Notes under the pieces: generated by a model
What the model was told of the DNA's origin: nothing
Databases searched by the model: none
The model's input: only the letters and a program-made list of their open reading frames with translations
Position numbers and translations under genes: made by a program
Assembly (NCBI GenBank): GCA_013002345.1
Contig: JABDKH010000196.1
Span: 5,160-69,159 of the forward strand
Source of the DNA: Rhodothermales bacterium
GTDB lineage: Bacteria > Bacteroidota > Rhodothermia > Rhodothermales > JABDKH01
Direction: 5' to 3'
Length of the DNA: 64,000 nucleotides
Shown: piece by piece, positions 2,458 through 64,000 of the stretch
Layout: the number at the start of each line of letters is the position of its first letter
How positions within the stretch are numbered: the first letter of the stretch is position 1

Positions 2458-2484
2458 TTAACACGCGATATGAAGCGCCGATAA
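2458..2484 (+). promoter_or_regulatory. Candidate sigma-28 (FliA-type) promoter: TTAAC-N14-GCCGATAA
   Basis: gTTAACacgcgatatgaagcGCCGATAAtgc. Exact match to the sigma-28 -10 consensus GCCGATAA, with a TTAA/TAAC -35-like element at canonical distance. Lies 59 nt upstream of the NlpC/P60 start. Same architecture as 10333-10359. Confidence 0.45.
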
Positions 2485-2542
2485 TGCAAGAATGGAGGGT
2501 TCGTGCCCGGCGGGCCCATTCATCGTTCTCCGGACTTAAGTG

Positions 2543-3157
2543 ATGATACACCACCATCTAGCGTCCCTGTCGTTTGCGGTTGTCGTACTGCTCGTTGCGG
2601 GCTGCAGCGGCGCCGGCGCATCGCGTTCTGCAGAGCCCAATGAAGACTCCGTTCCGGTACGAAGCCTTCCGGAGGATGTCAGTGACGCGAAAGCCGAGCT
2701 CGTTTCGCAGATAAATCGATGGCTGGGTACGGCGTACCGCTACGGCGGCACGGACGCCTCCGGATTCGACTGCTCTGGATTCGTACGGCGCGTCATGCGC
2801 GATGCCTTCGACGAGTCCTTGCCTCGGACCACCCGGGCCCAGATGCGCGTCGGATCCGAAGTCAAACGGACAGATCTACGGACGGCAGACCTGGTCTTCT
2901 TCCGCACCCCCGCTCGAAGTGATCACGTAGGAGTATACCTGGGAGATGGTGAGTTTGCACATGCATCGTCTAGCAGCGGAGTGATGATTTCGCACCTCAG
3001 CGAATCCTACTGGTCGAAATCCTATCGGACCGCTCGCAGGCTGTTTCACCTTGAAGATATCAGCGACTCGGACCAATCATCCGAGACACACGCGGCTCCA
3101 TCGAGCGCCGCTCGACTTGCCACCGCCCCCCCAACGTCCGGGCGCGTCGGTTGGTGA
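2543..3157 (+). CDS. NlpC/P60 (C40) family peptidoglycan endopeptidase lipoprotein
   Basis: Lipobox LLVAGC after a hydrophobic signal. Catalytic-Cys region GGTDASGFDCSGFVRRV and downstream DHVGVYLG, typical of NlpC/P60. Confidence 0.85.
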   Translation: MIHHHLASLSFAVVVLLVAGCSGAGASRSAEPNEDSVPVRSLPEDVSDAKAELVSQINRWLGTAYRYGGTDASGFDCSGFVRRVMRDAFDESLPRTTRAQMRVGSEVKRTDLRTADLVFFRTPARSDHVGVYLGDGEFAHASSSSGVMISHLSESYWSKSYRTARRLFHLEDISDSDQSSETHAAPSSAARLATAPPTSGRVGW

Positions 3158-7967: not shown

Positions 7968-8008
7968 AGACGCTTAGTCCAGCTGGGGCAATTTGCAGGT
8001 AGGGTATA

Positions 8009-8266
8009 ATGGCACATAAGAAAGGAATGGGGTCGACGAAGAATGGTCGCGACTCCAAACCCAAAATGCTCGGCATCAAGACCTTCGGCGGCGAATTCGT
8101 CAAGGCGGGCGGCATTCTTGTTCGGCAAAGGGGTACCAAATTCCATCCCGGCACGAACGTTGGACGTGGTGGCGATGACACGCTTTTTGCACTCGCCGAA
8201 GGCCACGTGAGATTCACGCGAGGCCACCGCGATCGGAAGTATGTGCACGTCGATCCCGCAGAGTAG
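8009..8266 (+). CDS. rpmA: 50S ribosomal protein L27
   Basis: [48 protein letters not shown]. Confidence 0.97.
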
Positions 8267-8301
8267 ACGCGCACATTTACATTCCGATGAGTAGCTGAAA
8301 A

Positions 8302-8340
8302 GGGTCCCCACGAGTTTGTGGAGACCCTTTCTTCGTTTTC
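8302..8340 (+). terminator. Rho-independent terminator after rpmA, between convergent genes
   Basis: GGGTCCCCAC-gagttt-GTGGAGACCC (10-bp stem, one mismatch) followed by TTTCTTCGTTTTC. Confidence 0.6.
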
Positions 8341-8348
8341 GCAGTAGG

Positions 8349-10265
8349 CTACAGGCCGCTGAATACGACGCGCGACATCTCCTCGATCGTCGTCTCGCCT
8401 GCGATGACCATTGCACGTGCACTATCCTGCAGCGTCAGCATTCCCTGCTTGATCGCAAGTCTTCCGAGGGCCGCCTCGTCGATCGCCTCCTCAGCTTCGA
8501 CAATCATCTCCCGGATCTCAGGCGTGAACGGCATCGTCTCCGTAATGGCACGACGCCCCTTGTAGCCGACCCCCCGGCACGTCTTGCACTTACCTCCTTC
8601 CGTCGCATTGTAGAACGTAATCTTGTCTAGCTCTTCGGGCCTGAATCCAAGGTGCGACAGCTTGCTCTTCTCAATAGACGTCGCCGGCGCCTTGCAGTCC
8701 TGGCAGACTGTTCGGATCAATCGCTGTGCCACAACGAGGTTGATCGCGTATGCGATCAGAAACGGTTCAATGCCCATCTTGTAGAGTCGGCTTATCGAAC
8801 TTGGGGCGTCGTTCGTATGAAGCGTCGAGAACGTCAGGTGACCCGTGTTCGCCAGCTTGATGGCCAGGTCGGCCGTATCCTTGTCGCGCATCTCTCCGAC
8901 CATGACAATGTCCGGGTCGTGTCGGAGTATTGAGCGGAGGGCTTGATCCAGTGAGAGCTTGTGGCTCAGCTTCACCTGACGCACCTCGGGGATAACATAC
9001 TCTACGGGGTCCTCCACCGTCAGCACATTGACTTTCGGTGTGACGACGTGACTCAGAGCCGCGTAGAGAGTCGTGCTCTTTCCGGAACCAGTGGGACCCG
9101 TTAGAATGACCATCCCGTACGGCTGGTGTATCGCCCACTCAAAACGCTCGAGTGCACTCTCTGCCAGACCGAGCTTTCGCAGATCCTTGATGACCTTTCG
9201 GTCGTCGAGGATCCGGATAACGATGCTCTCTGATCGAACCGTCATTTCGGCGTTCGCGATCGGCAGCACCGATACGCGAAACCGAATGAGCGCATTGTCG
9301 ATCTCTCTCTGTATGAACCCGTCCTGAGCACGCTCCCGCTCGAATCGATCTACGTTGATACTGTTGTCCTTCACGACCGCGAGGAACGCCTCCGGGTGGA
9401 CGCGGTCTTCAATGTGCCAACTGGTAAGCTCACCGTCGATCCGCAGTCGAATTTCGATTTCTTTACGGGCGTTCGGGAAGATGTGCACGTCGGAAGCACC
9501 CTGACGCACGGCTTCTTTCAACGTTGCTTCGAACAGGTTGATGAGCGCCGACCGATTGATCTCGGCCTCAAGCGCGTCCTCGTCAAAGAGTGCGCGCTCA
9601 GGATCGTCCACGGAGGCGCCCAGGTCAAACGCGAGCATGCCTTCCGCCGCCTTTCCAAAATCTCCCTTGCGGCGCCGGCGAACCTCATCAATGAATCCGT
9701 CAACCTCGACACGCTTCGCGAAACGGATCTCGATCTCCCGAAAACCAAGTTTCTGGAGCGTTCTCATCAGGTCCTGGCGGGCCGGATCGTGCGTGGCCAT
9801 TATCACGCGTCGTCCTTCTGAGCCTTCCTCGATCTTTACAGGCGCCACGCGGAGTTGCTCGAGCCCTGCCCACTGATCGGCCGTAATTCGGGCACCAAGG
9901 CCCTTCAGAAAGTCGGTAGGGTCCATTCCCTCGAGGCTGATCGTCGCAAACGAATACACGATCGCGGCCTGTTCAAATACAATTTCCGGATCGATTTCCG
10001 GGTCTTCAGCCAGTTCTCGCCAGAGTGGGTAACTCGTGCCTCCCTCCTTCTTGACCCAACGGTCCCACGCCGCCTGCACATGTTGGATGAGCACGAGTTC
10101 CTCGTACAGGAGCTTGATAACAACCCGGTCCCGCAGATCAAGTGGGTTGAATGTGGTTGAGTCCGGCGACTCGGGAACTCCGGCGGATCCGTTCCCACTC
10201 GGGCTTGAATCGGGACGGGCTAATGCATCAGCCTGCCAGCGTTGGTCCTTGGATGACTCTGCCAT
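8349..10265 (-). CDS. GspE/PilB-family secretion/type IV pilus assembly ATPase (orphan; unusual N-terminal extension)
   Basis: Walker A GPTGSGKSTT, Asp/His boxes, tetracysteine CQDC...CKTC, and a T2SSE_N-like region (RRVIMATHDPARQDLMRTLQKLGF). Start preferred at ATG 10265; the ORF track uses GTG 10319. No pilC/pilM/pilQ neighbours. Confidence 0.9.
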   Translation of the reverse strand: MAESSKDQRWQADALARPDSSPSGNGSAGVPESPDSTTFNPLDLRDRVVIKLLYEELVLIQHVQAAWDRWVKKEGGTSYPLWRELAEDPEIDPEIVFEQAAIVYSFATISLEGMDPTDFLKGLGARITADQWAGLEQLRVAPVKIEEGSEGRRVIMATHDPARQDLMRTLQKLGFREIEIRFAKRVEVDGFIDEVRRRRKGDFGKAAEGMLAFDLGASVDDPERALFDEDALEAEINRSALINLFEATLKEAVRQGASDVHIFPNARKEIEIRLRIDGELTSWHIEDRVHPEAFLAVVKDNSINVDRFERERAQDGFIQREIDNALIRFRVSVLPIANAEMTVRSESIVIRILDDRKVIKDLRKLGLAESALERFEWAIHQPYGMVILTGPTGSGKSTTLYAALSHVVTPKVNVLTVEDPVEYVIPEVRQVKLSHKLSLDQALRSILRHDPDIVMVGEMRDKDTADLAIKLANTGHLTFSTLHTNDAPSSISRLYKMGIEPFLIAYAINLVVAQRLIRTVCQDCKAPATSIEKSKLSHLGFRPEELDKITFYNATEGGKCKTCRGVGYKGRRAITETMPFTPEIREMIVEAEEAIDEAALGRLAIKQGMLTLQDSARAMVIAGETTIEEMSRVVFSGL

Positions 10266-10332
10266 AGTTGTGTCTGAGACGAACAGGAAATGGGCGGAAC
10301 TTGAGCCGGAATGGAACACCGGTCAATGTTCG

Positions 10333-10359
10333 TTATCGGCCTCTGAAAGGGTCCGTTAA
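10333..10359 (-). promoter_or_regulatory. Candidate sigma-28 (FliA-type) promoter: TTAAC-N14-GCCGATAA
   Basis: The minus strand reads cTTAACggaccctttcagagGCCGATAAcgaac. Exact -10 octamer, and the same -35-like pentamer and spacing as 2458-2484. Lies 68 nt upstream of ATG 10265. Confidence 0.45.
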
Positions 10360-10469
10360 GGGATTGCAGGCCCCCTATTTTCGGAGTCGTGACCGCGACG
10401 TCGGATCGGCCACACGAAATGCCGCCACCGGCCGCACGATATCCTCGTGATCGGAAGCTCTTTCAGGTT

Positions 10470-10488
10470 CGTGGAATCGATTTCCACG
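10470..10488. promoter_or_regulatory. Perfect inverted repeat CGTGGAA-N5-TTCCACG (candidate enhancer/UAS for the sigma-54 activator)
   Basis: Read directly from the sequence. Lies about 170-185 nt upstream of the sigma-54-like promoter at 10656, the usual distance range for bEBP binding sites. Confidence 0.35.
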
Positions 10489-10655
10489 TGACAGCGCTGT
10501 TTGTTGAAGAGGAGGACTCTGGATTGACAACATCCTTACGTACAAGGACAGTTCCTGTGATGCTTTTTAAATAAGTGTGATACAAGTGGTTATAGATAAT
10601 TAGTAATGTAAAAATTGAAGTCTACCGAATCGCTGATCTCGTCGCCGCCACACCT

Positions 10656-10671
10656 TGGCGCGACACTTGCT
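10656..10671 (+). promoter_or_regulatory. Sigma-54 (-24/-12) promoter
   Basis: TGGCGC-gacac-TTGCT versus consensus TGGCAC-N5-TTGCW: one mismatch, correct GG-to-GC spacing (12 nt). An AT-rich tract (10555-10625) and the palindrome lie upstream. Confidence 0.6.
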
Positions 10672-10748
10672 TGCATGTGAGTAGCATTCCACCGGGTGCG
10701 TCGATCGTCACCAGATCACGCTCCCTTCCACTCTACCCGAGTATCGCC

Positions 10749-11585
10749 ATGATTCATCAGATTCGCGCCGCGTCGGCTCAGGCTTTCCTTGCCAACTACC
10801 GACTTCCCCACCGCACTTTCGCGCAGAAGGACCCGAACTTCCCGGTGATCGGCCCGATCTGGGACGCTATGAAAGAGGGCGACTACCGGATCGCAGCCGG
10901 CCTCGTCACCGCCGAACTCGAAGGCCAGAGGTTATTCAGCGCCGAGGAAAAGACGGCCATGATGGTCGCTCTCGCCAATGCAGAAGTACTGATGGGCAAG
11001 ACGGATCGCGCCAAAAAAACCGCAGGAAAGACGCTGGATCTGTTTCCAAACCAGTGGTCCGGCCATAGAGTCCTGATTCATGTTCTCCACCTGAAACAGG
11101 CCTACAAGGCCGCATACCTTCAACTGCGCAAGCTCGAGCCGGGCCCCGTGCCGCTGTGGGACTGCCCGATAGGAACCACCGAAAGACACACCGTCATGGC
11201 GGCCTGGTCCTGGCTGTTGGGCGAGTGGGAACGCGTCTCCACTCATCTGAAGAAAGCCTACCCAGACGGAATAGATTCGATGCCTGCTGAAATCCAGGAG
11301 GACTGGTTCAGGCTCTCGCTGTACCGCGGACGCCCACAGGACGCAGTCGCTGTCGCTTCGCTACTGATTGAGCAGCGCCCTGTCGACCTGGCCGATGAAC
11401 TGCTGCAGACGTTCGTCCAGAATGGTTGGACCAAGGAAGCACTTCCCCTCTATCGTGCCGCATACGAGAGCGCACCACAGAGCCAGCTGCTTCGACGACG
11501 TCTCGTCGCGCTATGCATACGCGAGGGTGAACTGGAGGAAGCGCGGGATCTCACGCGGCCCGGTGCCCTCGACCTGGCAGCATAG
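10749..11585 (+). CDS. Hypothetical all-helical (TPR-like) protein, putative sigma-54-dependent
   Basis: Clean ORF with no signal peptide or TM. Repeated helical pairs (…AMMVALANAEVLMGKTDRAKKTAGKTLDLFP…, …ALPLYRAAYESAPQSQLLRRRLVALCIREGELEEARDL). Start set at the first ATG downstream of the sigma-54 promoter, which overlaps the ORF-track TTG start at 10671. Confidence 0.6.
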   Translation: MIHQIRAASAQAFLANYRLPHRTFAQKDPNFPVIGPIWDAMKEGDYRIAAGLVTAELEGQRLFSAEEKTAMMVALANAEVLMGKTDRAKKTAGKTLDLFPNQWSGHRVLIHVLHLKQAYKAAYLQLRKLEPGPVPLWDCPIGTTERHTVMAAWSWLLGEWERVSTHLKKAYPDGIDSMPAEIQEDWFRLSLYRGRPQDAVAVASLLIEQRPVDLADELLQTFVQNGWTKEALPLYRAAYESAPQSQLLRRRLVALCIREGELEEARDLTRPGALDLAA

Positions 11586-11695
11586 GGAACGAGAACCGAC
11601 GACTGTGCGCTGCTACCTGCGTGCCCGTAGCACGCACCGGAAGATTTTTCCGGAAGATCTTTAAGTCGCGAAGCCGAACTGGCGATAAGAACATT

Positions 11696-11838
11696 GTCAG
11701 CGGCATGCGACCCCGGTCGATAGATCGGGAAATCCCACGGGAAAGGTTCTGGCGATAATGGTTCCCCTGGGTAACGGACGGAATGGCGAACCGTCCCTCA
11801 GCGGCCTTCAGGTTACCTGGAGGCCGCTGTTTCTTTTT
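11696..11838 (+). ncRNA. Candidate small RNA (promoter-like element to intrinsic terminator), function unknown
   Basis: TTAAG-N15-GGCGATAA (11661-11688, a weaker version of the sigma-28-like motif) lies upstream. Internal hairpin GGACGG-aatggcgaa-CCGTCC (11776-11796). Strong terminator at 11799-11838. No ORF of 60 aa or more on this strand. Confidence 0.25.
11799..11838 (+). terminator. Rho-independent terminator
   Basis: CAGCGGCCT-tcaggttacctgg-AGGCCGCTG (perfect 9-bp stem) followed by TTTCTTTTT. No T-tract in the opposite orientation. Confidence 0.6.
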
Positions 11839-11863
11839 GCGAGAATCGGACTTCCGTGCTTCG

Positions 11864-12094
11864 CTACGCGGCCTTTCGGACGTCCGGCTCTGAATCGGGA
11901 TCTGCCCGCAGCTCAACGATAGTCAGCGTGGTGTCGCCAGAATCATCAAGGTCATCCGGCCGCTCCGAAGCAAGCTGGACAACGTGAGACGCATCGGCGA
12001 TGAACTCCGATTTCAAGGCGTTCAGCTGTACAACCTGCGACGCAGGTTCGGCCGGCGGGCACGCTTTGCGATTCGATTCCAATGGTTCCTTCAT
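11864..12094 (-). CDS. Small acidic hypothetical protein (76 aa)
   Basis: MKEPLESNRKACPPAEPASQVVQLNALKSEFIADASHVVQLASERPDDLDDSGDTTLTIVELRADPDSEPDVRKAA. Lies downstream of, and co-directional with, the sigma-54 activator gene. Codon third-position GC resembles neighbouring genes. No recognisable family. Confidence 0.3.
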   Translation of the reverse strand: MKEPLESNRKACPPAEPASQVVQLNALKSEFIADASHVVQLASERPDDLDDSGDTTLTIVELRADPDSEPDVRKAA

Positions 12095-12323
12095 GGTCGT
12101 TCCATGCCGGTATGGGTGGCATGTCACTCCGACGCCGTAATCGTGCCAAACGCACAGCCGCACCTGTATCGTTCGTCGCAGATCTGACCCTGGAGCCTCT
12201 CGAAAAGCCAGAAAGAGCGATTCTGGCAGCCGAGTCGATGGCAGAGGCCATGCAGCTCGCGGACGATGAAGCGGTCGTTCGCGGCAAGCGTTTCCGGAAA
12301 GATGAGGGTTGCCCCCCAGCGGT

Positions 12324-13712
12324 CTACGAGATCAACCCGTCTTCGCGGTACTTCTTGAGCTTGTTTCGGATTGTGCGAGCGCTGATGCCCAGCTTCTGTG
12401 CCGCCAGCTGCTGATTGTTGTTCGTCTCCGACAGGGTTCGCAGGATCATGTGCCGTTCCATCTCCTCGATGGTCTCGATATTAACAGGAGCGTCCGCCCC
12501 GTCACCTCCGGCGACCAGGTCGGCGTCTATGAAGAAGCTGTCGAATACGTCAGTCTTTTCGACGGTGGTTCGCTCCGCGGAGAGCAATACACCTCGCTGC
12601 ACCATGTTCTCAAGTTGGCGCACGTTCCCGGGCCATGAGTAGGTCATGAATTGATCCAGAAGCTCCTTCGAGACCTGCTTCGATGGCAGTCCGTAGAGCT
12701 CGCAGTACTTGACCACGAAGTGTTTCGTCAGAACCGGCACGTCCGACATGCGGTCCCTGAGCGGAACGCCGTTTACCGGAAAGACAGAAATCCGGAAGTA
12801 CAGATCCTCGCGGAAATCGCCCTCGCGAATAGACTCGGACAGGTTCCGGTTGCTGGTCGCGATCACGCGCACATCAACCTTTTGAGGTTCAGAGGCACCG
12901 ACCTTCATGAACTCGTTCTCCTGGAGGACCCTGAGGAGCTTCGCCTGGGTCGGCAGATCGATCTCTGTGATTTCGTCCAGCAAAAGCGTCCCCTTGTCTG
13001 CTTTCTCAAACGCACCGACCATATCATCGATTGCTCCCGTGAACGCACCTTTTCGATGACCGAAGAGATGGCTTTCAACCAGCTCGCGAGGCAAGTTGGC
13101 GCAGTTTACGGCGATAAACGGCCCGGAGGCACGGTCACTGCTCTCGTGGATCAACCGCGCCAGAATCTCTTTGCCAGTTCCGCTTTCACCCTGGATAAAA
13201 ACCGGCGCGGCGTTCTGACTCACTTTCGGTATGACCTCCAGAAGCCGGGCAACGGACGGATGCTCTCCGATGAACTGAACGGTGGGTGCCGATCTCTTGC
13301 GCGCCGACGGGCTCTCGGCAGCCGCCCGCGGCGCTGCCTGCGTCTTCCTCTTCAGGACGTCCTGAATCCGTTCAACGACGAGAGACGGCTGAAACGGCTT
13401 CGCAATGTAGTCCACGGCTCCGGACCGCATGGTGCGCACGGCGTGCTGCACGTTCGCATGAGCAGTGATCATGATCACACCGAGATCAGGGTAATTCTGA
13501 CGAATGTGCGCAAGCAGCTCGAGGCCGTCCATGTCCGGCATCATGAAGTCAGTCACGACCAGGTCGAAGTTCTCTGTCTTCAAATGCTCCACGGCCTTGA
13601 CGGCACTGGAGCAACATGTCACGCTCATGTCGTGACGAGCCACAAGACGTTCAAACATCTTGTGAAGCATCACCTCGTCGTCGACGAAGAGGATGTGTGG
13701 AGTGTGGTCCAT
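12324..13712 (-). CDS. Sigma-54-dependent response regulator (NtrC/PilR class: REC + AAA+ + Fis-type HTH)
   Basis: REC domain (ILFVDDE…DLVVTDFMMPDMDG…KPF); AAA+ with GESGTGKE, the GAFTGA loop and ATSNRNL; C-terminal HTH QQLAAQKLGISARTIRNKLKKY. No sensor kinase gene adjacent. Confidence 0.93.
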   Translation of the reverse strand: MDHTPHILFVDDEVMLHKMFERLVARHDMSVTCCSSAVKAVEHLKTENFDLVVTDFMMPDMDGLELLAHIRQNYPDLGVIMITAHANVQHAVRTMRSGAVDYIAKPFQPSLVVERIQDVLKRKTQAAPRAAAESPSARKRSAPTVQFIGEHPSVARLLEVIPKVSQNAAPVFIQGESGTGKEILARLIHESSDRASGPFIAVNCANLPRELVESHLFGHRKGAFTGAIDDMVGAFEKADKGTLLLDEITEIDLPTQAKLLRVLQENEFMKVGASEPQKVDVRVIATSNRNLSESIREGDFREDLYFRISVFPVNGVPLRDRMSDVPVLTKHFVVKYCELYGLPSKQVSKELLDQFMTYSWPGNVRQLENMVQRGVLLSAERTTVEKTDVFDSFFIDADLVAGGDGADAPVNIETIEEMERHMILRTLSETNNNQQLAAQKLGISARTIRNKLKKYREDGLIS

Positions 13713-14130
13713 TGATCTCAGATTCCGGCAGCAATCACGGGTGGGTTGATGTCGAAGATACTAACTATCTCGACAGCTATGATGTCCATCCGCTAGCGGC
13801 CGGCTCAAACTCATCCTGTCCGAACCGCCCCGTCGAGAGAGGGGCTAGCGGTCGTCCGACCGACTATTCAGCGTTGCCCGGAGGCATCTTTGGGTCATCG
13901 TGCGGTAGGATTTTCCGAACGATTGCCCTGGTCCTAAGCGCAAGTCATTGAGATGGGCCACGTGCGCAACGTGCAACTCAAACGTGTGGAAGGGCGCGTC
14001 GCAGCATGTGCCCGCCGGATACGAGCGGCAATCTAACAGGCCCTCATGAGCTGAAATCCCTGTTTTTTGGCTGACCATTGCCGTCCGCCGGACGCGATCG
14101 ATCGAACCGTTTATGTCAATCTGGCGAACG

Positions 14131-14138
14131 GCCGATAA
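14131..14138 (+). promoter_or_regulatory. Exact sigma-28 -10 octamer GCCGATAA upstream of the small-membrane-protein/fliA operon (no good -35)
   Basis: cgaacgGCCGATAAcg, 99 nt upstream of ATG 14237. The -35 position reads TATG/TTAT, not TTAAC/TAAA. Confidence 0.25.
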
Positions 14139-14174
14139 CGATAAAGTTGACGCATGCACCAGCTCTTCCGTCAC

Positions 14175-14189
14175 TGGCATCAATCTTGG
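14175..14189 (+). promoter_or_regulatory. Imperfect sigma-54-like element TGGCAT-N5-TTGG
   Basis: Correct 12-nt -24/-12 register, but the -12 element is GG rather than GC. Lies 48 nt upstream of ATG 14237 and is divergent from the sigma-54 activator gene. Confidence 0.25.
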
Positions 14190-14236
14190 ATTGCTTGCGC
14201 TCGCACTACCCAGGCATCCAACCCATCGGTCCTACC

Positions 14237-14491
14237 ATGCGCGTTCTAACGCTTCAGTTCAGTGTCCTCATCGGGGTCCTGACATTTGTGAGCCAGATTA
14301 CAAGCGGGATGGCACTCGAATCGTCGATGCTGCGCGGCCTTGCCACGGCATCCGCCATCTTCCTCGTCATGCTGCTGGGTGACCTCGCAATTCAGGCCGT
14401 TGTTCGGTCGCATTCACCGGCACAAGCTTCGTCCGCCCGGCCGGTCCCCAATCGAGACAGCGGAGATCAAAGCGACGCGCTCGCTGCCTAG
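14237..14491 (+). CDS. Small membrane protein (84 aa, two predicted TM helices)
   Basis: MRVLTLQFSVLIGVLTFVSQITSG…ATASAIFLVMLLGDLAIQAVV, then a polar tail. Lies immediately upstream of the FliA-family gene on the same strand. Confidence 0.45.
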   Translation: MRVLTLQFSVLIGVLTFVSQITSGMALESSMLRGLATASAIFLVMLLGDLAIQAVVRSHSPAQASSARPVPNRDSGDQSDALAA

Positions 14492-14552
14492 ACACCCGCC
14501 TCTCGCATCGCCAGTCATCGCCACATTACAACTGTTGATTCGCATGTCGCAA

Positions 14553-15305
14553 GATCTACAGAGTCTCGCCGTTCTCTACGCCCGCGATACATCCCCTTCG
14601 AACCGTGAAGCCGTCGTCGTCGCAGCGGTTCCACTCGTAAGGTCAGTCGTTGGTCGACTCAGCGTGCCCGATCATCCTCTGGCGGCACGCGAGGACCTGG
14701 AAAACGTCGGCCTGCTGGGACTGTTGCAGGCCCTGAACGGCTACGATCCCGATCGCGGGACACCGTTCGTTTCCTATGCCTACGGTCGCATCCGCGGAGC
14801 GCTCGTAGACTATCTCAGATCCATCGATGCCCTTCCGCGAGAACGCCGAAGGAAGCTGGCGCAGGCACAGCGGGCCATCGACATTCTGAGGCAAAAGAAG
14901 GCCGGTGAGCCGACCGACCACGAAGTCGCCGACTATCTTGAAATGACACTTGTGGAATACCACACGCTCCTACGGGACGCCCAGTGCCGCTTCGCTCTGT
15001 CGCTCCACGCACCCACGGACAGCGACGGTGAACAAACAGTCCTCGAGACAATTCCCAACGAAGAGACGCTCAAGGCTTTTGAGCGCATCGATACCAACTC
15101 GCTCCATCGGTACATTGGAACGCTCGTCAAGGAGCTGCCGGAACGGGAGCAAACGATCCTGGCCCTGTACTACTACGAAAGCCTGACGCTCAGGGAAATC
15201 GCCGCCCTGCTAGACCTCACCGAAGCACGCATATCACAGATCCTCGGCAAGATCCTGAAAACACTCCGTGCCCAGCTCGCCAAGACGCACGCACGCGCCG
15301 CCTGA
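14553..15305 (+). CDS. fliA: FliA/WhiG (sigma-28) family RNA polymerase sigma factor
   Basis: Strong colinearity with FliA: LENVGLLGLLQALNGYDPDRGTPFVSYAYGRIRGALVDYLRS (regions 2.1-2.4) and LPEREQTILALYYYESLTLREIAALLDLTEARISQILGKILKTLRAQL (region 4). Start set at ATG 14553 (250 aa). Confidence 0.88.
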   Translation, partial: DLQSLAVLYARDTSPSNREAVVVAAVPLVRSVVGRLSVPDHPLAAREDLENVGLLGLLQALNGYDPDRGTPFVSYAYGRIRGALVDYLRSIDALPRERRRKLAQAQRAIDILRQKKAGEPTDHEVADYLEMTLVEYHTLLRDAQCRFALSLHAPTDSDGEQTVLETIPNEETLKAFERIDTNSLHRYIGTLVKELPEREQTILALYYYESLTLREIAALLDLTEARISQILGKILKTLRAQLAKTHARAA

Positions 15306-15526
15306 GACCACACCGACGTCCATTTCTCGTCCGCCTCCTCGGTGAGCGGCTTGCCGTTAAGCTTGTGCGAAGCCGCAAAACAATTGGGCTGATTGCCAGT
15401 ATATTTGTGTTTCCAGCCACCGGTCAGTAGCGAAACACGGCCCATCGACGCACAGCGTCAGATCGCAAATCGCATCCTGGACCCGGACCCACACAACAGC
15501 GATCCATTTTTCAGGTGATATAAGTC

Positions 15527-17614
15527 ATGGGACTCATGACCAAGATGCGGGACAACACGGGCGTTGTCCTCTGGATTCTGGTGATTGCGTTTGGCGTCAT
15601 CTTTATGCTCCAGGATACCAACGTCTTTGACGTTATCGGAGCAACGGGCAACATCATTGCCAAGGTGAACGGTCAGGACGTATCACTTGATGAATACAAC
15701 AATTACGTCAACAACCAGGTGGAGGCCTATCGACAGCGCACCGGCGAGTCGATTCCGCCTCAGATTCTGGATTCAGAACGAGAGCGAGTATTCAACGAGT
15801 TGGTCGACGATCGACTGCGCGAGCAAGAGATGAGCCGAATCGGAATCGTCGTCACAGATGACGAGGTGCGGCAGATGGTTCTTGGCGACAACCCGCACCA
15901 GATAATCCGTACGTTTTTCGGTGACGGTCAGGGAAACGTCGACCGGGCGGTGCTACGCAATTTTATTGAGAATCCAGATGCACGGGAGGACCTGATTCGA
16001 ATCGAGGATTATCTCCGAACCGAACGGCGGCGAGAGAAACTCGATCGCCTTATCGACGCGTCGGTGCGCGTCTCCGACCAGGACGTCCTCAGTGAGTACA
16101 TAAGCCAGAAGAAGCGCATTAACGTTCAGTATGTGGCTCTTCCGTACGCACTGGTGCCGGATTCCGCGATAACGGTGTCCGAGCGCGACATCAGGAAGTA
16201 CTACGACGAACATCTGTCGGACTACGAGCGCAAGCGCGCATATTCGCTGGTCTACGTCAGGAGCAGCAAGACGCCGACAAGTAGCGACTCTGCCGCGGTG
16301 ACGGAAGAGCTGGTCCGGCTGAAGCCTCGCTTCGAGGCCGCCGAGAATGACTCCCTTTTTCTGGCCCAGAATTTCTCGGAGACTCCGCTTTCCGATGCCT
16401 TTTTTGGCCGTGGTGACCTGGATGATGCCATTGCCGAGGCGGTCTTCCAATCCCCCCGGAAAGGCGACGTGCTTGGCCCGGTTGCAGCTGGTGGCAGCAT
16501 GCATCTCGTCAAGATACTGGATGTCAAGTCGGCGGATGACCCGTCCGTTCGTGCCCGTCACATCCTGATCAGGGCTGCCGAAGACGACAACGTTCAGCGA
16601 ACGGCCGCGAGGGAGCTCGCTCGATCTGTCATGGAACGCATTCGTGCGGGCGAGGATTTCGCCGCAGTTGCTCGCGCGATTTCAGACGACACCCAGTCAG
16701 CTCGGGACGGTGGTGACGTCGGATGGTTCAGTAAGGGTCGCATGGTGAAACCGTTTGAAGACGCCGCCTTCGCCGCTCGCGTCGGGCGTTTGATCGGCCC
16801 GGTCGAAACCCAGTTTGGATATCACGTCATCGAAGTGACGGGTCGAAGCACCGATGAAGTTCAGATTGCGGACTTCGCTCTGAAACTTGCGCCCAGTGTC
16901 GCGACGCTGACTCGCGTGGAAGAAAATCTGGACGACCTGAAGTTCTTTGCCGAGGAAGAGGGCGGTTTCCGAGCAGAGGCCGAACGAAGAGGGCTGACCG
17001 TTCAAACGGTTCAGGTAGAGGCAGACCAGCAGTTCATCCCTGGAATTGGAAACAGTCGGGCCTTGCTCAATTTCCTTGCTACGGCCTCCGTGTCGTCCAT
17101 CAGCCCGGTCGTGGAGCTGAACGACGATTTCATGGTCGCCGAGGTTACAGACATTCAGGAGGCTGGCTACCGGCCTCTGGCGGACGTTCGAGCTGAAATA
17201 GAACCGAGGGTTCGATTGGAGAAGAAGCGAGATGTTCAGCTGGCGAAGATGACCAACGCAAACGCATCTGGTCTTTCAGAGCTGGCGTCCGTTCTGTCAA
17301 CTACCGTCAGAACCGCCAATGGATTGACTATGTCTGAGCCCGTTGTCCCGGGCCTTGGCCGCGAGCCAAAGTTTGTGGGAACCACCTTTGGCCTCCAGCA
17401 GGGTCAAGTGTCACGCCCGGTCGCCGGACAGAATAACGCGTTCGTTATCGACGTCCTCAGTATCGCCGAGCCCCCGGAGATCACAGATGCCGAGAAGGAA
17501 CGCATTCGAAATCAGCTTCTGACGCAGAGACGATCACAGGTTCGTTCTCAGTGGCTAACGTCCATCCGTTCGAAGGCGGATGTGACCGACAATCGCCGAT
17601 TCTTCTTGCAGTAG
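15527..17614 (+). CDS. ppiD: Periplasmic chaperone/peptidyl-prolyl isomerase PpiD-like (SurA_N + parvulin domain)
   Basis: N-terminal anchor GVVLWILVIAFGVIFML; parvulin core RARHILIRA…GGDVGWFSKGRMVKPFEDAAF…GYHVIEV; 695 aa. Confidence 0.85.
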   Translation: MGLMTKMRDNTGVVLWILVIAFGVIFMLQDTNVFDVIGATGNIIAKVNGQDVSLDEYNNYVNNQVEAYRQRTGESIPPQILDSERERVFNELVDDRLREQEMSRIGIVVTDDEVRQMVLGDNPHQIIRTFFGDGQGNVDRAVLRNFIENPDAREDLIRIEDYLRTERRREKLDRLIDASVRVSDQDVLSEYISQKKRINVQYVALPYALVPDSAITVSERDIRKYYDEHLSDYERKRAYSLVYVRSSKTPTSSDSAAVTEELVRLKPRFEAAENDSLFLAQNFSETPLSDAFFGRGDLDDAIAEAVFQSPRKGDVLGPVAAGGSMHLVKILDVKSADDPSVRARHILIRAAEDDNVQRTAARELARSVMERIRAGEDFAAVARAISDDTQSARDGGDVGWFSKGRMVKPFEDAAFAARVGRLIGPVETQFGYHVIEVTGRSTDEVQIADFALKLAPSVATLTRVEENLDDLKFFAEEEGGFRAEAERRGLTVQTVQVEADQQFIPGIGNSRALLNFLATASVSSISPVVELNDDFMVAEVTDIQEAGYRPLADVRAEIEPRVRLEKKRDVQLAKMTNANASGLSELASVLSTTVRTANGLTMSEPVVPGLGREPKFVGTTFGLQQGQVSRPVAGQNNAFVIDVLSIAEPPEITDAEKERIRNQLLTQRRSQVRSQWLTSIRSKADVTDNRRFFLQ

Positions 17615-63333: not shown

Positions 63334-64000
63334 CTAGAATTGAAGGGTAAGAACGGCTCGTGGCTCATGCCTGCCCGATTCAACGTTAACCATTTCCATC
63401 CGTGCCGATAATCGGTCATTATGCAACCGCGAGAACACTGCGGCGTCGATGGCCGAAATCACATGGTTCACGATAATCAGCGAGGTCACGCGTGAAGCCC
63501 GGCGCAGCAGGTCCTGCGACCGGGCGTGATCCCTCGCGTACGAGTAAAACTTTGGAGATACGCTGACCTTACCACCTTCGCCATCTGAGCGTTCGGGATC
63601 GATGGCATCGGTGTACTCGTCCTCCACAACCCAGTCTGGATAGTCCTCCCATCCCGGGGCAAACTGGAAGTACTTGCCGATGAGTTCGTAATACTGCTGC
63701 TCTCCGAAATACGGCAGGACATGGGAGAACGTCGCACCCGTCTCGGGATGAAACATCTGGGACTCGGTGGCTCGTATCTCGTTGAACAATCGGCGTACCG
63801 TGATCAATTCGGATTCCGTCCACCCGGCAGGCTCAGTGAAGTCCAGTTGGTCAGGACTCGGTATCAAAATATCCTGGACTGTGAATACACCGCCGTGGTT
63901 AATTTCCAAAAAGCCCACATAGTCATTGAGCCACTCTGCGTACCGCGTCGGACTCCACTCGGCATGGGCTTGCGCCTGGAAAGCGCGTTCTCCGTCCAGG
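63334..64000 (-). CDS. Hypothetical protein, 5' end beyond window
   Basis: The frame stays open upstream of the ORF-track start to the window edge (…LDGERAFQAQAHAEWSPTRYAEWLNDYVGFLEINHGG…). Diverse composition. Ends …AVLTLQF (C-terminal aromatic, OMP-like). No family recognised. Confidence 0.55.
   Translation of the reverse strand, partial: LDGERAFQAQAHAEWSPTRYAEWLNDYVGFLEINHGGVFTVQDILIPSPDQLDFTEPAGWTESELITVRRLFNEIRATESQMFHPETGATFSHVLPYFGEQQYYELIGKYFQFAPGWEDYPDWVVEDEYTDAIDPERSDGEGGKVSVSPKFYSYARDHARSQDLLRRASRVTSLIIVNHVISAIDAAVFSRLHNDRLSARMEMVNVESGRHEPRAVLTLQF
63386..63411 (+). promoter_or_regulatory. Third copy of the sigma-28-like composite motif (TTAAC-N13-GCCGATAA), antisense inside a CDS
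   Basis: cgTTAACcatttccatccgtGCCGATAAtcgg on the plus strand, within the last ~30 codons of the minus-strand gene 63334..64000. Confidence 0.3.

Follow-up and report, generated by a model that had tools for sequence, protein, structure and literature searches.

Why should a sigma-54/sigma-28 regulatory island surround a lone PilB-like ATPase in a stretch of Rhodothermales DNA where pilus and flagellar structural genes are missing? This question is raised by the 64-kb window analysed here (W, with a GC content of about 57–58%), and more precisely by a 7-kb block inside it. We consider it quite likely that the block is a fragment of the Rhodothermales flagellar transcription hierarchy which has moved to this place, next to a paralogue of PilB-like ATPases under sigma-28 control. 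Rather than forming the centre of the block, this ATPase would be one sigma-28 target among several. We place the regulators in the flagellar hierarchy because, in relatives, the gene for a tetratricopeptide repeat (TPR) protein and the sigma-54 activator lie in a flagellar context, a kinase stands beside the activator, and the synteny of these genes can be separated from the ATPase. Every element that the initial annotation listed for the block is present, as seen in the open reading frame (ORF) listing and in Pfam and NCBIfam scans. The genes and their sigma-54 signals are as follows.

8349..10265, minus strand: PilB/GspE-family ATPase of type I, with an MshEN-fold N-domain (Pfam T2SSE, E-value 1e-99)
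10473..10485, no strand: palindrome GGAATCGATTTCC, candidate enhancer (upstream activating sequence) about 170 nucleotides (nt) upstream of the TPR sigma-54 promoter
10656..10671, plus strand: predicted sigma-54 promoter of the TPR gene, TGGCGC-N5-TTGCT, the sole match in the window
10749..11585, plus strand: TPR protein of 278 amino acids (aa), cytoplasmic-looking, C-terminus ...ALDLAA (homologues, AlphaFold2 (AF2) model)
12324..13712, minus strand: FlrC/FleR/FlgR-type sigma-54 activator, REC-AAA+-HTH_8 (Pfam Response_reg, Sigma54_activat, HTH_8)
13904..13916, no strand: second palindrome GGTAGGATTTTCC, ahead of the sigma-54 promoter of mini-fliA
14175..14189, plus strand: predicted sigma-54-type promoter of the mini-fliA operon, TGGCAT-N5-TTGG, 45 nt before the operon
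14237..14491, plus strand: mini-protein of 84 aa with two transmembrane (TM) segments, C-terminus ...ALAA (same position in loci L001, L084, L085 and L126)
14544..15305, plus strand: FliA (sigma-28), 253 aa (TIGR02479 score 198.9 for a cut-off of 189.6)

Numbers such as L001 denote the loci of relatives. A scan of species genomes with the ATPase as anchor yielded 80 loci, almost all labelled Rhodothermales or Bacteroidota. The closest relative of the window is contig CAVYIO010000027 of the metagenome-assembled genome MFD03551.bin.2.116, with 97% protein identity and 92% DNA identity across 8001-15600. TPR orthologues (43–51% identity) are found directly after flgL in three Rhodothermales lineages, at the end of an operon that reads flgF-flgG-flgA-flgH-flgI-x-flgN-flgK-flgL-TPR and is usually followed by an HDOD gene. 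The first lineage is Rhodocaloribacter litoris (CP076718) with the related BPHM01000005, the protein being identical in both (L082/L081); the two others are BPHN01000001 and an 8.1-Mb metagenomic contig (L087, L088). The activator possesses a receiver domain, a sigma-54 AAA+ domain and a Fis-type helix-turn-helix, and its GAFTGA motif is readable in the translation. Its orthologue P0164 (67% identity, BPHM01000005, L086) stands in a flagellar cluster, with flgBC-fliEFGHIJ on one side and fliS-fliD-fliT-flagellins on the other, and the gene just before it encodes a 276-aa HisKA/HATPase kinase; some orthologues carry the JGI label FlrC. We searched the window for a cognate kinase gene and found none, so that the description of an NtrC/PilR-class activator without adjacent sensor kinase holds across the whole 64 kb. 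In L126 and L086, a kinase adjoins the activator. In L126, TPR-HDOD-kinase-activator run in one direction, followed by mini-fliA, beside rplU-rpmA; because this order is kept there, the kinase appears to have been lost or relocated in the window's lineage.

The synteny of the block in relatives gives a mixed answer: the TPR-activator-mini-fliA cassette is kept, whereas the ATPase is separable from it. Indeed, L084, L085 and L126 show the order rplU-rpmA-TPR-...-activator-mini-fliA-ppiD-dapF with no ATPase. In L005, L006, L066 and L073, rplU-rpmA adjoins the ATPase, and in the first three of these loci the TPR gene and the activator are absent. L006 and L066 also hold fliA-ppiD-dapF (a trio syntenic in L085 and L126 as well) and fill the interval from the ATPase to fliA with genes for an aminotransferase, an M90 peptidase and a FlgM-like protein, in place of the TPR gene and the activator. 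The ATPase and the TPR gene are found together only in W, L001, L002 and L083. Since the ATPase is missing at the locus in L084, L085 and L126, at most a regulatory link could tie it to the cassette. Codon differences relative to L001 reveal strong purifying selection on all five proteins of the block.

The two sigma-54 promoters are conserved. TGGCRC-N5-TTGCW has one match in the window (10656-10671) against 0.17 expected, and the GG-N10-GC core of this near-consensus promoter, already noticed ahead of the 278-aa gene, is kept in six lineages (W, L001, L002, L083, L084 and L085). A site matching the one before the mini-fliA operon precedes the mini-protein gene or fliA in L001, L006, L066, L084, L085 and L126, i.e., in seven lineages with the window. 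The consensus (TGGCAC-N5-TTGC) has GG and GC elements 10 nt apart, and sites of this kind stand here at orthologous positions. Hence, with conserved sigma-54 promoters before both the TPR gene and mini-fliA, the sigma-54 to sigma-28 layout that had been proposed is encoded in the DNA. Upstream of the TPR gene, the palindrome GGwA-N5-TwCC occurs in W, L001, L002, L083 and L085 (background 0.03 per 450 nt), and the second palindrome has the same relative position in L001, L084, L085 and L126. Between 150 and 270 nt upstream of sigma-54 promoters, GGwA-N5-TwCC was found in nine of the ten regions of activator-bearing loci and, in addition, twice in L126, versus neither of the two regions of the activator-less loci L006 and L066 (background 0.03 per region). 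We infer that this palindrome is the enhancer of the activator. Between the palindrome and the TPR promoter lies an AT-rich stretch (10550-10640), 39–75% identical to L001, which may be a DNA-bending site or an unconstrained spacer. Relaxed sigma-54 and enhancer scans of the flagellar loci L082 and L086-L088 gave mostly noise; readable signals in L086 were GGAAGGATTTTCC upstream of fliS and TGGCAC-N5-TTGA before fliT.

The second tier of the hierarchy is marked by a sigma-28-type motif. TTAAC-N13-15-GCCGATAA is present at three sites in the window, compared with 0 in 100 shuffles. In relatives, the motif precedes a flagellin gene (L082, 18577-18603), fliS (L086, 14335-14308) and the FlgM-like genes of L006 and L066, the late-gene form being TTAAG-N14-15-G[CA]CGATA. 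Because the motif sits before these genes, we identify its relaxed form, TTAA[CGT]-N14-15-G[CAG]CGATA, by position as the predicted local FliA consensus, a promoter of the TAAA-N15-GCCGATAA type. Besides that of a small RNA (see below), the following promoters of the sigma-28 type are predicted in or near the block.

10333..10359, minus strand: predicted sigma-28-type promoter of the ATPase, TTAAC-N14-GCCGATAA (motif in eight lineages)
2458..2484, plus strand: predicted sigma-28-type promoter of an NlpC/P60 lipoprotein gene (2540-3157), outside the block
14110..14138, plus strand: possible autoregulatory sigma-28 promoter with a perfect GCCGATAA -10 and a weak -35, TTTATG (100% conserved in L001)

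The sigma-28-type promoter attributed earlier to the ATPase is borne out as a motif conserved across lineages. It is kept in 8/8 type I ATPases with upstream sequence (background 0.01 per 420 nt), with a diverged spacer in L001, L002 and L083, as TTAATG-N14-GACGATAG in L005, L006 and L066, and also in L012; only 4 of the other ~65 paralogue copies carry this motif. The NlpC/P60 promoter motif is kept in five lineages (W, L001, L083, L006 and L066), a case that resembles the sigmaD-dependent autolysins of Bacillus subtilis. The 14110..14138 promoter was not found in L084, L085 or L126 and is thus lineage-specific and less certain. The third exact motif, TTAACCATTTCCATCCGTGCCGATAA (63386-63411, plus strand), lies antisense in the 3' end of a minus-strand ORF (63334-63918), with no plus-strand ORF after it, and may reflect either an antisense promoter or chance. 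A sigma-28-type motif also lies ahead of the kinase-activator operon in L086 (8835-8861, plus strand), a flagellar cluster of the Rhodocaloribacter kind, which suggests a feedback of FliA on the sigma-54 activator. Lastly, TAAAGA-N~14-GCCGATA[AC] is found 172–308 nt upstream of type II ATPases (see below) in L017, L020 and L022. Given such motifs upstream of some cluster-embedded PilB genes, FliA control of pilus ATPases may extend beyond type I.

Between the TPR gene and the activator, the spacer 11586-12323 had been described as a small acidic ORF and about 740 nt of structured, poorly coding sequence. The structured part stands, as a conserved structured RNA in 11650-11850; the ORF (here orf99) is only weakly supported as coding.

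11661..11688, plus strand: predicted sigma-28-like promoter of a small RNA (sRNA), TTAAG-N15-GGCGATAA, both halves conserved
11696..11842, plus strand: candidate sRNA, ~145 nt, three hairpins plus intrinsic terminator (conservation, covariation)
11864..12163, minus strand: orf99, the 'small acidic ORF', status uncertain (weak coding signal)

The stretch 11650-11850 is 98–100% identical to L001, versus 92–93% for coding DNA. In L001, L002 and L083, and thus in four lineages with the window, the promoter keeps both motif halves, with a diverged spacer between them; the sRNA itself is conserved in L083 and L002. Its terminator consists of a 14-bp stem (11799-11829) followed by a T-tract. Its 3' 115 nt are homologous to the sequence found right after flagellin stop codons in L082/L081 (R. 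litoris/BPHM01) and in the metagenome contig L100. A covariance model, R1, recovered seven sequences; in the model-fitted alignment, 92% of cells pair and double changes occur at 10 of the 13 pairs of the terminator. Except for one pair of hairpin 2, which reads C-G, G-U and U-A in the fitted alignment and C-G, A-U and U-A by eye in the unfitted one, hairpins 1 and 2 hardly vary. RNAalifold offers an alternative, a long-range pairing of the conserved GGUUC with GAACC, so that the inner structure is tentative. An Rfam 15 scan of 10200-14600 gave no match at E <= 1, and a pattern scan of metagenomes gave 37 matches, of which two are genuine (L100 and L102). Around the TPR start codon, aTCGCC-ATG-AT (10738-10751 in the window) is conserved in the lineages (L002, L083 and L085) in which a sigma-54 promoter of its own precedes the TPR gene, and it is complementary to the sRNA loop UGGCGAU(AAU). 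The loop CUGGCGAUAAU might thus pair with the conserved AUCGCC-AUG of the TPR mRNA; a duplex-energy comparison did not discriminate, the TPR site being no better than other genes or shuffles. As for orf99, its substitutions relative to L001 fall 8/4/16 over the codon positions, with 11 synonymous and 14 nonsynonymous codon differences. It has no family match and is not FlgM-like; a profile built from the FlgM-like proteins of L084, L006 and L066 found no FlgM-like gene in the window.

The closest known analogues of the sRNA would be the flagellar sRNAs that depend on sigma-28 and derive from untranslated regions (UTRs). In E. coli, these are FliX, MotR, FlgO and UhpU (PMC10578931), and in C. 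jejuni, CJnc170 and CJnc230 are sigma-28-dependent flagellar sRNAs (PMC11187230). Like them, the window sRNA is short, bears a terminator and has a sigma-28-type promoter and, as for FliX with fliC, its core recurs in relatives as the 3' end of the flagellin transcript. Unlike them, in this lineage it stands by itself behind the TPR gene, and it shares no sequence or Rfam homology with them.

What is, then, the ATPase? It was described as an orphan of the GspE/PilB family, and within the 64 kb this is borne out: we detected no pilC, pilM, pilQ, pilin or flagellar structural gene in domain scans that included ~40 other ORFs, nor any platform protein, pilin or secretin partner near it. The functions identified in these ORFs are housekeeping ones (for example greA, lysA, rplU/rpmA, ppiD, dapF, phoH, panC and fumarase, as well as htrA, tamB, RNase R, mutL and tilS). 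Its open frame reaches a GTG at 10319 (8349-10319, minus strand), and the start is most likely the ATG at 10265, ~65 nt downstream of the promoter. The T2SSE core (PF00437, E-value 1e-99), which aligns to M. xanthus PilB (3jc8), the Walker A, Walker B and His boxes and the CxxC...CxxC tetracysteine motif are those of PilB, GspE and MshE ATPases, and so is the MshEN/GSPII fold of the N-domain. The codon differences relative to L001 (125 synonymous, 16 nonsynonymous) reveal strong purifying selection. The N-terminal extension of roughly 100 aa reported at first was overstated: most of it is a normal N-domain, and ~45 low-complexity residues are extra. Indeed, residues ~40-200 adopt an ordinary MshEN/GSPII N-domain in a modest AF2 model (predicted local distance difference test score, pLDDT, of ~80 over fragment residues 10-160), whose best PDB matches are the N-domains of MshE (5HTL) and Xanthomonas PilB (7LKO), XpsE-N and the GSPII domains of Thermus PilF, with 2D28 also among the best. 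Pfam MshEN matches with an E-value of 0.0014. The N-terminal 250 aa had no match when the PDB was searched by sequence, whereas the fold search gave matches, and a protein search with the N-terminal 211 aa returned one truncated protein that added no context. The cyclic di-GMP motif of MshEN reads RLGxxLLxxGLIxxxxLxxxLxxQ; compared with it by eye, the ATPase's RVVIKLLYEELVLIQHVQAAW retains the hydrophobic pattern, and both glycines and the glutamine are replaced. Unlike PilB, GspE and MshE, the ATPase has these motif glycines replaced, lacks pilC, pilM-Q and pilin neighbours, carries a conserved sigma-28 promoter, is one of up to three paralogue contexts, and scores below the equivalog cut-offs (TIGR02538 PilB, 399.9 vs 675.65; TIGR02533 GspE, 373.5 vs 630.25).

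Rhodothermales hold several PilB-like paralogues with cores ~70% identical, and three genomic contexts (types I, II and III) are seen in the order. Type II lies in a pilus-like or type II secretion system (T2SS)-like cluster, partner genes being found with it in L015. Type III is an orphan among housekeeping genes, adjoining an ORF with the N-domain only; the close relative of the window carries one in L040. The ATPase of the window is of type I, which forms a loose clade in a neighbour-joining tree without support values. Beside type III ATPases, whose neighbours include PEP carboxylase and TonB genes, the adjoining ORF (L040, 11847-12620; also L016, L023, L030 and L049) matches only the N-terminal ~200 aa of the ATPase and is a stand-alone MshEN-like domain. 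The 'inteins' in paralogue matches were rejected, as they are adjacent ORFs with the N-domain only. Most likely, during the motile programme, the type I ATPase drives a machine of the type IV pilus or T2SS kind whose genes lie elsewhere, or another partner. A bolder proposal, which we hold only tentatively and as possible rather than probable, is that type I ATPases form a separate branch of orphan pilus-type motors, present across the order and recruited into the late-gene (FliA) regulon together with NlpC/P60 and a new sRNA family derived from flagellin 3' UTRs, with a flagellum-coupled function. Such a coupling could mean, for example, surface attachment, pilus deployment timed to motility or even a motor-associated role. 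Type IV pilus parts are reused in Campylobacterota flagellar motors, and a flagellum-coupled ATPase would echo this.

Gene identities, synteny, and the conservation of the motifs and of the RNA, with its covariation, come directly from sequence and comparison. On these elements, we propose a mechanism in which the binding partners, the direction of regulation and the flagella of this genome are deduced. A soluble histidine kinase, encoded elsewhere in the genome, would phosphorylate the FlrC/FlgR-type activator (12324-13712). The latter would bind the two GGwA-N5-TwCC palindromes that flank its gene, at 10473-10485 and 13904-13916, and open the sigma-54 promoters of the TPR gene (10656-10671) and of the mini-fliA operon (14175-14189). 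FliA would then transcribe the TTAA[CGT]-N14-15-G[CAG]CGATA promoters of the ATPase, of the ~145-nt sRNA (11696-11842) and of the NlpC/P60 hydrolase gene and, elsewhere, the FliA-type promoters before flagellin, fliS and flgM.

Several observations weigh against this interpretation. Flagellar structural genes, rpoN and the kinase are all absent from the window; we assume flagella, rpoN and the kinase in the source organism, of whose genome 64 kb were read. The ATPase is absent from this position in L084, L085 and L126 and does not reach the NCBIfam equivalog cut-off for PilB, and the copies in L003 and L010, close to type I in the tree, have neither the type I context nor the motif. Every promoter assignment is motif-based. 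The activator also falls under the equivalog cut-offs (FlbD NF050807, 363.8 vs 750; FlgR NF049963, 324.7 vs 750), so that, by sequence, we rank it as a member of the NtrC-type flagellar family and as an equivalog of neither FlbD nor FlgR.

Could flagella have been lost, with the FlrC-like activator, FliA, the TPR protein and the sRNA repurposed for envelope functions through the PilB-like ATPase and the NlpC/P60 hydrolase? The regulators are apart from structural genes, the kinase and HDOD genes of L126 are missing in the window, and predicted sigma-28 promoters stand on non-flagellar genes, which speaks for such a loss. We nevertheless regard it as unlikely, since L006 and L066 have the same non-flagellar sigma-28 targets and keep a FlgM-like gene, and since the TPR protein, known from flagellar contexts alone, is under purifying selection. 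The initial annotation saw in the block a self-contained sigma-54/sigma-28 module for an uncharacterised, non-flagellar process powered by the orphan ATPase, in which the TPR protein replaces the pilin as in the Pseudomonas pilA/pilB pair under PilR. This we now find quite unlikely: the TPR gene and the activator belong to flagellar operons in relatives, the cassette occurs without the ATPase and the ATPase without these two genes, the sRNA is homologous to flagellin 3' UTRs, and flagellin in relatives has the same sigma-28 motif, even if W, L001, L002 and L083 have the ATPase gene divergent from an adjacent TPR gene, the ATPase has a conserved sigma-28 promoter and the window lacks flagellar and pilus structural genes. 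Finally, it is very unlikely that the ATPase is a housekeeping PilB paralogue standing by chance beside rplU-rpmA, with a non-functional sigma-28-like motif and no link to the cassette: its presence at this position varies, and type III paralogues are likewise orphans among housekeeping genes, but the motif persists in all eight type I lineages despite diverged spacer and flanks (background 0.01) and is found in so few of the other copies.

The relocated flagellar hierarchy that we favour is, in its main sigma-54 to sigma-28 design, familiar. Two-component hierarchies of this kind are FlrB/FlrC of Vibrio, FleS/FleR of Pseudomonas and FlgS/FlgR of Campylobacter and Helicobacter. To our knowledge, flagellar gene control has hardly been studied in Bacteroidota/Rhodothermota, and we know of no experimental description of a flagellar hierarchy for Rhodothermales. 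The locus provides a sequence-level draft of one (activator, enhancer motif, sigma-54 promoters, fliA and sigma-28 consensus) and adds three regulon candidates, namely the orphan PilB-type ATPase, a cell-wall hydrolase and a new sRNA. The new parts appear to be the FliA-regulated orphan PilB paralogue and the sRNA candidate, as predicted from motifs; the FliA-dependence of the ATPase, if true, would be a clean coupling of flagellar and pilus-type machines. The features shared with the known hierarchies, including that described in Campylobacter (PMC11187230), are the activator of NtrC type (REC-AAA+-HTH), which in relatives has a small soluble kinase as partner, predicted sigma-54 promoters before middle flagellar genes, the place of fliA further down the cascade, and predicted sigma-28 promoters ahead of flagellin and flgM. 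Unlike in those hierarchies, fliA has a conserved sigma-54 promoter and a two-TM mini-protein as predicted operon partner, the cassette is apart from structural genes and kinase, and the activator misses the NCBIfam equivalog cut-offs.

The 278-aa protein, correctly described as a helical-repeat protein divergent from the ATPase, is a TPR solenoid in its AF2 model (pLDDT 89), with generic TPR folds as its only fold matches. It has 139 homologues, ~279 aa in length, at E <= 0.001, the 120 listed being 38–99% identical; those with names are all from Rhodothermales or Bacteroidota. The protein is probably cytoplasmic, because it shows no signal peptide, TM segment or beta-sandwich. TPR proteins are reported near flagellar clusters in ~52% of flagellated species (PMC11870540). 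Like Campylobacter PflA/PflB, the 278-aa protein is a TPR solenoid encoded in or beside flagellar operons. Unlike these scaffolds, it is all-helical, has 278 aa, ~7 repeats and an ssrA-like ...LAA tail, and lacks an N-terminal hydrophobic segment as well as the signal peptide, TM segment and beta-sandwich; the tests run gave no PflA/PflB homology.

The two-TM mini-protein and the FliA-family sigma factor are both present as announced, but fliA starts at the ATG 14544 and not at 14553. FliA has regions 2, 3 and 4 (Pfam Sigma70_r2, r3 and r4) and belongs to the FliA/WhiG group. The mini-protein, with no match in Pfam/NCBIfam and family searches, differs from L001 by seven synonymous and two nonsynonymous codons, and is predicted to be co-transcribed with fliA as a mini-fliA operon. 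The C-termini of the TPR family largely conserve ...ALxLAA (11583 in the window), those of the mini-protein homologues read ALAA, AIAA, PLAA or PIAA (14489), and FliA ends in ARAA in the window (15303) and in ALAA in L006 and L066. These ssrA-like ...LAA tails of the three proteins hint at a regulated proteolysis of the ClpXP type.

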